45,899 bases of DNA from a virus (taxonomy: Duplodnaviria; Heunggongvirae; Uroviricota; Caudoviricetes): IMG/VR virus record IMGVR_UViG_2711768067_000020. The stretch is one strand, 5' to 3'. The notes below the pieces were generated by a model, which did not search any database, was not told the DNA's origin, and worked only from the letters and a program-made list of their open reading frames with translations. The stretch's first letter is position 1, and each line of letters opens with the position of its first letter. The position numbers and the translations under genes were made by a program. Of this stretch, positions 17,017 through 17,331 are shown piece by piece.

Positions 17017-17331
17017 ATGCTACATGATCACGTGGCAGAATGTCTGGAGAAAAAAGGACTGTACCGGAGAGCAGCTGAACGATGGGCAAAAGTGATGGTA
17101 CAGCTAAGTGATGACCAGAAAAGAAAAGTGGCGGCACAGAAACGAGCAGAGTGTTTGCGTAAGGCGCGCCGGACTCCGGTTTCACCGGTGAACCTGACCG
17201 AAATAAAACAAGCGGTCAACAGACTACATTCTGAGTTGGGAATGGGATTTGAAGAGCGGCGGGTATTCCGACGATATAAAGGGACAGGAGAACAGAATAC
17301 GTCCGGAAACGCGCGGTCAAAAAAATGCTAA
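17017..17331 (+). CDS. pch: PerC/Pch-family transcriptional regulator homologue
   Basis: 104 aa with KGLYRRAAERWAKVMV and RAECLRKARR motifs characteristic of PerC/Pch proteins as remembered. Confidence 0.65.
   Translation: MLHDHVAECLEKKGLYRRAAERWAKVMVQLSDDQKRKVAAQKRAECLRKARRTPVSPVNLTEIKQAVNRLHSELGMGFEERRVFRRYKGTGEQNTSGNARSKKC

Follow-up and report, generated by a model that had tools for sequence, protein, structure and literature searches.

The window, the whole 45,899-nt stretch of DNA that was analysed, is a lambdoid prophage with an apparently intact late region, in which the gene pchA lies in its native late-operon orientation between the lysis genes and the cos site. The features of this locus are given below with their coordinates in the window.

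15215-15748, lysozyme gene, an upstream lysis gene
16027-16551, plus strand, Rz spanin gene (Pfam Phage_lysis, E=1.2e-48), which closes the lysis cassette and bounds the pchA moron locus on its upstream side
16304-16489, Rz1 gene, embedded in Rz (E=1.7e-21)
16634-16774, plus strand, 46-aa ORF of unknown function (phrog_2157, E=2.7e-37), conserved in the pchA, pchB and pchC loci of Sakai
16775-17016, plus strand, AT-rich and T-tract-rich upstream region, the presumed promoter and 5' leader of pchA itself
17017-17331, plus strand, pchA coding sequence (ATG start, 104 aa plus stop), a PerC-family, group-1 Pch regulator
17368-17394, both strands, hairpin with an A run and a T run at its sides, located between the convergent genes pchA and ylcI, a probable bidirectional intrinsic terminator
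17413-17637, minus strand, YlcI/YnfO (DUF3950) gene that converges on pchA (Pfam DUF3950, E=1.3e-17; NCBIfam YlcI_YnfO_N, E=1.5e-8)
17845-17889, plus strand, lambda-type cos (12-nt cohesive end GGGCGGCGACCT of cosN plus adjacent sequence), the downstream boundary of the locus
18040-18549, Nu1 gene, after cos
18464-20449, large terminase gene, after Nu1

The first-pass annotation had described a 104-aa protein with a PerC signature, encoded in an AT-rich and T-tract-rich setting between the lysis cassette and cos, and each part of that description was borne out. The ORF is exact and its product matched the Pfam family PerC (PF06069) over profile positions 1-89 of 90 with 149.3 bits (E=3.8e-44; gathering cut-off, 22.6 bits) and the PHROG family phrog_994 with E=1.4e-45, values far beyond chance, so that this full-length match above the gathering score places the protein in the PerC family. 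GC content falls to 28.5% in 16800-16999, with an AT skew of -0.36 and visible T runs, against about 50% in the flanking coding DNA. The lysozyme, Rz and Rz1 genes lie upstream, and cos, Nu1 and the terminase gene lie downstream. For cos, a 45-nt string that we take to be the left end of phage lambda (cosN plus flank) was used as the query; it matched exactly, 45/45, at 17845-17889, and matched in 0 of 100 shuffles.

The upstream region was scanned for promoters, which gave two sigma-70-like sites where 3.6 were expected, none of them above chance; one weak match at 16784-16812 did not exceed the shuffle expectation. At the other end of the gene, the hairpin at 17368-17394 has a folding energy of -14.7 kcal/mol on the plus strand and -12.1 kcal/mol on the minus strand (z = -4.1 and -4.3 against shuffles) and is invariant across the pchA, pchB and pchC loci. 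No plus-strand terminator was found between Rz and pchA, and Q-dependent late transcription should therefore read into pchA. A permissive Rfam search of 16400-18100 returned no RNA family around the gene. The prophage sRNA HnrS was considered as an occupant of the spacer between pchA and cos and was rejected, since it is reported on Sp9, Sp10 and Sp12 and not on pch prophages (PMC13502914). The counterpart of the gene at 17413-17637 is likewise annotated as YlcI/YnfO in O145:H28. The 46-aa ORF stands directly upstream of pchA, pchB and pchC, and ORF and pch gene seem to move together within a single insert between Rz and cos.

Identity of the gene

E. coli O157:H7 Sakai has five annotated pch genes (pchA, ECs_1091; pchB, ECs_2182; pchC, ECs_2737; pchD, ECs_1388; pchE, ECs_1588), and the window protein was aligned with their products. 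It was identical to PchA at 104 of 104 positions, 99% identical to PchB (V6L) and 98% identical to PchC (V6L, V59M), as against 31% for PchD and 40% for PchE; identity to PerC of EPEC plasmid pMAR2 was 47%. The core residues G14, R17, R18, R22, W23, R36 and C46 (PchA numbering) are all present, and are invariant in the eight-sequence seed alignment and across 108 diverse PerC homologues. A first word-indexed homologue search gave only relatives of at least 70% identity and was re-seeded with divergent paralogues. The 104-aa protein also carries the C-terminal extension (residues ~90-104, ending in GEQNTSGNARSKKC) that is absent from PchD, PchE and PerC; its residues 92-104 are predicted to be disordered, with pLDDT below 50.

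The match extends into the surrounding DNA. In the 457 nt upstream of pchA a single substitution separates the window from the Sakai pchA allele, and over 16560-17420 the two loci differ at 2 of 861 positions. Over alignment columns 300-420, the variable upstream block, the window and Sakai pchA are the same, while pchB and pchC depart from them at many sites. Because the protein and this allele-specific T-rich block are shared, and V6 and V59 are both present, the window holds the pchA allele including its regulatory region. By sequence, then, 17017-17331 is pchA itself and not just a member of the PerC family: an already known and well-studied gene in its usual genomic position, with a known phenotype and a mode of action that is largely known, its product turning on the type III secretion island (LEE) in enterohaemorrhagic E. 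coli and its relatives. The Pch-like regulator that had been proposed here can thus be named as PchA specifically.

We consider it highly improbable that this copy has decayed, or that it is a paralogue without activity or with another function, of PchD/PchE-like or repressor-like type. The family does diverge in function: the LEE is little affected by PchD and PchE (PMC6265319), and a PICI-borne PerC-like protein represses LEE1 (PMC11773190). However, identity to PchD and PchE is just 31% and 40% where that to PchA is 100%, the ORF, Shine-Dalgarno sequence, upstream region and terminator are intact, and the context differs from the SpLE1 or Sp7 type of those two genes; we therefore rejected this assignment. 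An alignment with PchA, PchB and PchC versus PchD and PchE had been suggested as the check, with clustering in the inactive group as the outcome that would speak against function; it placed the window protein unambiguously in the active group 1, and no such clustering was seen. The accompanying caution that function cannot be read from sequence stands for the PerC family generally, but does not apply here because the protein and the 457 nt upstream, with their one differing base, match the characterised pchA.

Comparison with other pch and perC loci

The closest known system is Sakai PchA (ECs_1091, NP_309118.1; WP_001303878.1), encoded on prophage Sp4. Its protein is the same, its upstream region and terminator are alike, and so are its neighbours Rz/Rz1, the 46-aa ORF and ylcI. 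The holin-lysozyme-Rz-pchA segment at 14000-17494 of the window matches the Sp4 locus 22131-29827 with 99.5% identity on the opposite strand. Sp4 is a degraded prophage, and its lysis-pchA segment lies in inverted orientation between IS629 and ISEc8, whereas the window segment has its native orientation. As the Sp4 segment is inverted between IS elements, the reference pchA of Sakai would be uncoupled from read-through of the late operon, and the window copy would not. The cargo differs as well, Sp4 carrying a tccP2 pseudogene and the window nleH, cif and nleG.

PchB (Sp11) and PchC (Sp14) have the same length, the same position between Rz and terminase and the same membership of active group 1; the T-rich region upstream of their genes diverges from that of pchA, which agrees with a report that LrhA regulates pchA and pchB differently (PMC4456613). 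In the lambdoid prophage of the window, pchA lies downstream of Rz/Rz1 and upstream of cos/terminase, the same place that the group-1 genes have on Sp11 and Sp14 and in O145:H28.

PerC of EPEC E2348/69 belongs to the same Pfam family and activates LEE1 (PMC4764244, PMC11773190), and it has in common with PchA the N-terminal motif LE-KG-YRRAA-RW--M and an R..C motif. It differs in its length of 89 aa, in having no basic C-terminal tail and in being plasmid-borne (pMAR2), in the perABC operon with the AraC-type gene perA. In EPEC it can also be dispensed with for LEE expression under many conditions; EHEC, by contrast, requires pch (PMC4764244). PchD (SpLE1, 89 aa) and PchE (Sp7, 90 aa) have the invariant core residues of PchA; their genes lie in an island and in a P4/PICI-like element after ssb, respectively, and PchE represses curli and flagella.

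Many STEC genomes, those of O145:H28 outbreak strains among them, carry the 1.1-kb pchA locus with 100% identity, and of 5426 complete E. coli genomes 672 have it at a coverage of at least 80%. Among those listed, the exact matches were mostly from STEC or cattle isolates, O145:H28 included, and one came from phage work on O157:H7. In O145:H28 the protein bears the RefSeq name "PerC family transcriptional regulator" (WP_001303878.1). The exact 45.9-kb prophage was absent from the complete-genome collection, where the best backbone match, from a pig isolate, had 92% coverage and 98.7% identity.

Prophage context and effector cargo

Beyond the pchA locus, the following features were identified in the prophage.

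1950-2661, genes for a CI-like repressor and a Cro-like regulator
7251-7400, plus strand, sok antitoxin RNA (hok/sok locus)
9725-10546, Q antiterminator gene
10690-10765 and 10866-10942, plus strand, two tRNA genes downstream of Q, with a CAT anticodon (called Met) and Arg-TCT
11713-11885, plus strand, STnc100 sRNA, just upstream of a DUF1737/SASA esterase gene
39204-40523, tail fibre gene, among morphogenesis genes
40891-41781, plus strand, NleH-like OspG kinase gene (Pfam OspG_kinase, E=1e-10)
42005-42853, plus strand, Cif gene (Pfam CIF, E=3.6e-19)
43721-44347, plus strand, NleG gene (Pfam T3SS_NleG, E=1.7e-44)

The suggestion of effectors and a secretion-system regulator on one and the same prophage held up, the NleH-like kinase, Cif and NleG being encoded together with PchA. 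Matching genomes annotate the NleH-like and Cif genes as nleH and cif, and the effector end resembles that of bovine and human isolates. Effector genes are reported to be under joint control of Pch and Ler (PMC4764244), and the cargo of the window belongs to this class of genes for T3SS substrates. The window holds the prophage only, and it is from this T3SS effector cargo that we infer a LEE in the host; that the exact matches listed came mostly from STEC or cattle isolates points indirectly the same way.

Three further observations concern the cargo and tRNA genes. The CAT tRNA is probably of the ileZ type, which is annotated as tRNA-Ile in Sakai. A minus-strand ORF at 45246-45899, cut by the end of the window, has a weak match to AvrPphF-ORF-2 (HopF/EspJ-like; E=4e-4, below the Pfam cut-off) and may be espJ. 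A 252-aa ORF at 6301-7059 on the plus strand encodes a periplasmic solute-binding domain (SBP_bac_11, E=1.6e-34), an unusual cargo for the early-right region.

Translational control of pchA

Translation of pchA was considered from the following features.

17006-17010, plus strand, Shine-Dalgarno (SD) sequence GGAGG of pchA, 6 nt before the ATG, read from the sequence
17105-17116, plus strand, candidate anti-SD segment in the coding sequence (UAAGUGAUGACC), predicted to pair with the SD/start region 17006-17017
821-872, minus strand, DicF sRNA gene (Rfam RF00039, 76.7 bits against a gathering score of 48, full length 1-52/52)
458-751, minus strand, DicB gene (PF05358, E=6e-37), immediately downstream of dicF

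The pchA mRNA has been reported to inhibit itself by SD:anti-SD pairing (PMC7769764), and the sRNA DicF, which depends on Hfq, has been described as exposing the ribosome-binding site of pchA at low oxygen (PMC7769764, PMC7873438, PMC9438474). When the leader and coding sequence were folded (minimum free energy and partition function), the SD sequence was predicted to be mostly base-paired, with a probability of 0.8-0.9 for G17006, G17007 and G17010. In these predictions 17006-17017 pairs with 17105-17116 at a probability of about 0.6, the alternative partner 17174-17179 having a probability of about 0.3. The predicted pairing of the SD region with the coding sequence is consistent in kind with the published self-inhibition.

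Prediction did not place the DicF site. A search for a full-length DicF:pchA duplex gave only uninformative long-loop solutions, and the best duplex of the DicF 5' seed (17162-17174, -14.0 kcal/mol) was equalled by 137 of 1000 dinucleotide shuffles. Blocking the predicted DicF site moved SD accessibility from 0.21 to 0.22, which is no rise. The genes dicF and dicB lie in the early-left region of the same prophage as pchA, so that a regulator and its sRNA activator are linked on one mobile element. Because the DicF match and the effector genes share this element, the prophage can be described as carrying a regulator (pchA), an activator (dicF) and secreted substrates.

Action of PchA on the LEE

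The first-pass annotation had also proposed that a prophage-borne Pch can activate the LEE through ler, which is supported by published work on the identical protein (PMC6265319, PMC4764244). Group 1 pch genes, and not pchD or pchE, are needed for full expression of ler and espA and for adherence, and are induced by SOS-inducing treatment (PMC6265319). Fukui et al. found that Pch activates LEE1 only under silencing by H-NS and StpA as well as Hha and YdgT, that it lowers H-NS occupancy at LEE1 both in vivo and in a reconstitution with cell extracts, and that it enhances Ler-dependent activation of other LEE promoters (PMC4764244). Inputs upstream of pch include LrhA, Lrp/butyrate and LeuO (PMC4456613).

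On this basis, in a LEE-positive host PchA would associate with the LEE1 (ler) promoter region and reduce its occupancy by the H-NS/StpA/Hha complex. Ler would then be produced and switch on the rest of the LEE and the non-LEE effector genes, Pch and Ler co-activating at the other LEE promoters. The output of pchA itself would be gated three times: by its own AT-rich promoter region, by probable read-through from the phage late operon upon induction, and by the self-inhibitory SD:anti-SD structure of its mRNA, which DicF, of which a copy lies on the same prophage, would relieve under low oxygen. The identity, allele, position and genomic context of pchA were observed here; the anti-silencing mechanism and the control by DicF are taken from the literature, and we infer that they hold in the host of the window. 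The literature mechanism is itself not fully direct, as the in vitro reconstitution used cell extracts and the structural model of PchA has no recognisable DNA-binding fold. Taken as a whole, the gene is very probably pchA acting as a group-1 moron between the lysis genes and cos of an effector-carrying lambdoid prophage, which de-silences LEE1 in a LEE-positive host.

A different emphasis would be that PerC-family proteins serve primarily, or served ancestrally, the mobile element itself, as general counter-silencers or regulators through which prophages, PICIs and plasmids get their own AT-rich genes expressed, and that activation of the LEE is a secondary co-option; PchA in the window might then work chiefly for the phage. 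The family is widespread in Enterobacterales outside the LEE-carrying attaching-and-effacing pathogens, with members in Salmonella, Klebsiella, Enterobacter, Citrobacter, Pluralibacter, Kluyvera, Serratia and Pantoea, and the PerC profile search found 341 cluster representatives. PerC-family genes adjoin ssb in Sakai Sp7, where pchE comes after it, and also on a conjugative plasmid of Klebsiella; another lies near hha on a Salmonella plasmid, and PICIs commonly carry PerC-like genes (PMC11773190). These ssb and hha neighbours suggest that such genes serve generally to establish incoming mobile DNA or to counter its silencing. Pch also binds many non-LEE sites, including effector loci (PMC4764244, PMC4456613), and pchA stands on the late-operon strand with no plus-strand terminator found between it and Rz. 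Against this, the listed 100% matches to the pchA locus were mostly from STEC and cattle isolates, including O145:H28, published genetics have tied group 1 pch clearly to LEE and adherence phenotypes (PMC6265319, PMC4764244), and no phage phenotype of group 1 pch was reported in the literature searched. We regard such an element-centred primary role as rather unlikely, although it is not exclusive of the reading of pchA as a LEE1-de-silencing moron.

With regard to these gene neighbourhoods, the PerC-family loci after ssb span 863-1773 on the Klebsiella plasmid, 11352-12045 in Sakai Sp7 and 1462-2545 on the Salmonella plasmid pLG24p2 (locus coordinates), and on pLG24p2 the PerC-family gene is two genes from hha.

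Relationship of the PerC/Pch family to ANR proteins

The ANR proteins (Aar of EAEC, Rnr and Cnr; NF033650) resemble the PerC family in that both affect H-NS-silenced virulence genes. They differ in being anti-activators of ~40-80 aa, whereas PchA activates and has ~50 extra C-terminal residues. ANR proteins act by binding AraC-family regulators and H-NS; for Aar the binding to H-NS is direct, and it modulates the silencing that H-NS exerts (PMC5570504). In the literature searched, a resemblance between PerC and ANR is mentioned in one paper, and there just in passing (PMC11773190).

We compared the two families with the NCBIfam ANR model NF033650. PchA itself scored 13.6 bits (E=0.046), short of the cut-off of 32 bits, yet 65 of the 108 PerC-family members matched the model at E<=0.01, with a best value of 2.5e-9, and the top relative (P0031) reached 32.5 bits. 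The alignment is collinear, residues ~5-52 of EPEC PerC, PchD and PchE mapping to model positions 7-54 of 54. When the PerC profile was searched against 1.84 billion representatives, the 341 proteins found included natural forms of 55-70 aa that end after helix 3, and all ten of these short PerC-motif forms that were tested matched the ANR model. The published conserved residues of ANR are A10, E14, A22 and W26 (PMC4983702); the conserved PerC residues A7, E11, A19 and W23 have the same spacing, W23 being invariant and the other three present in at least 90% of the 108 sequences. Proteins noted for this link were P0031, P0205, P0206, P0250, P0264 and P0268. A tblastn search of plasmids with the PerC N-terminal query, at E up to 10, returned only PerC-annotated genes and no bona fide ANR gene. 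The comparison of sequences thus supports homology of PerC and ANR at the level of a superfamily, but not membership of PerC in ANR.

The predicted fold of PchA is a TPR-like hairpin with three N-terminal helices, and no classical DNA-binding fold (HTH, wHTH or RHH) was recognised in the model. A sequence search of the PDB found no relative, and a Foldseek search against the PDB gave nothing at E below 1. Since a classical DNA-binding motif was not seen and the alignment to ANR is collinear, Pch might act through protein-protein contacts.

These findings bear on a possible alternative in which PchA is an ANR-like adaptor that contacts H-NS, StpA and Hha or an AraC-family partner directly, thereby remodelling the silencing complex, and is not a DNA-binding activator, with the same outcome of LEE1 de-repression. 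It draws on the matches of 65 of 108 members and of the short forms to the ANR model, the collinear mapping and the equal A/E/A/W spacing, on the direct binding of H-NS by Aar and on the place of perC in an operon with the AraC-type gene perA. It is opposed by the sub-threshold score of PchA itself, by unpublished observations of Fukui et al. that H-NS did not co-precipitate with PchA and that effects were limited to virulence loci (PMC4764244), and by ChIP-chip data placing Pch at defined chromosomal sites (PMC4764244). With this balance we put the adaptor forward only as a tentative proposal. The broader form of the idea, in which PerC/Pch proteins are an extended branch of the ANR superfamily with an ANR domain formed by their three N-terminal helices, LEE1 is de-silenced by protein contact with H-NS, StpA, Hha or an AraC-type partner and not by sequence-specific DNA binding, and the ~50-residue C-terminal extension turns an "anti-activator" into an "activator", is in our judgement equally speculative and somewhat doubtful.

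Conclusions

As a known master input to the LEE T3SS, pchA identifies the window as a virulence prophage from an attaching-and-effacing lineage of E. coli, and a single phage transfer could deliver effector cargo plus part of the circuit that switches on the secretion machine. The pchA finding adds no new biology apart from the link between PerC and ANR, which is possibly new and is the sole part with research value, the biochemistry of Pch still being described as poorly understood. If true, this link would join two families of virulence regulators that the literature treats separately, and it could explain the repression of the LEE by some PerC-like proteins.
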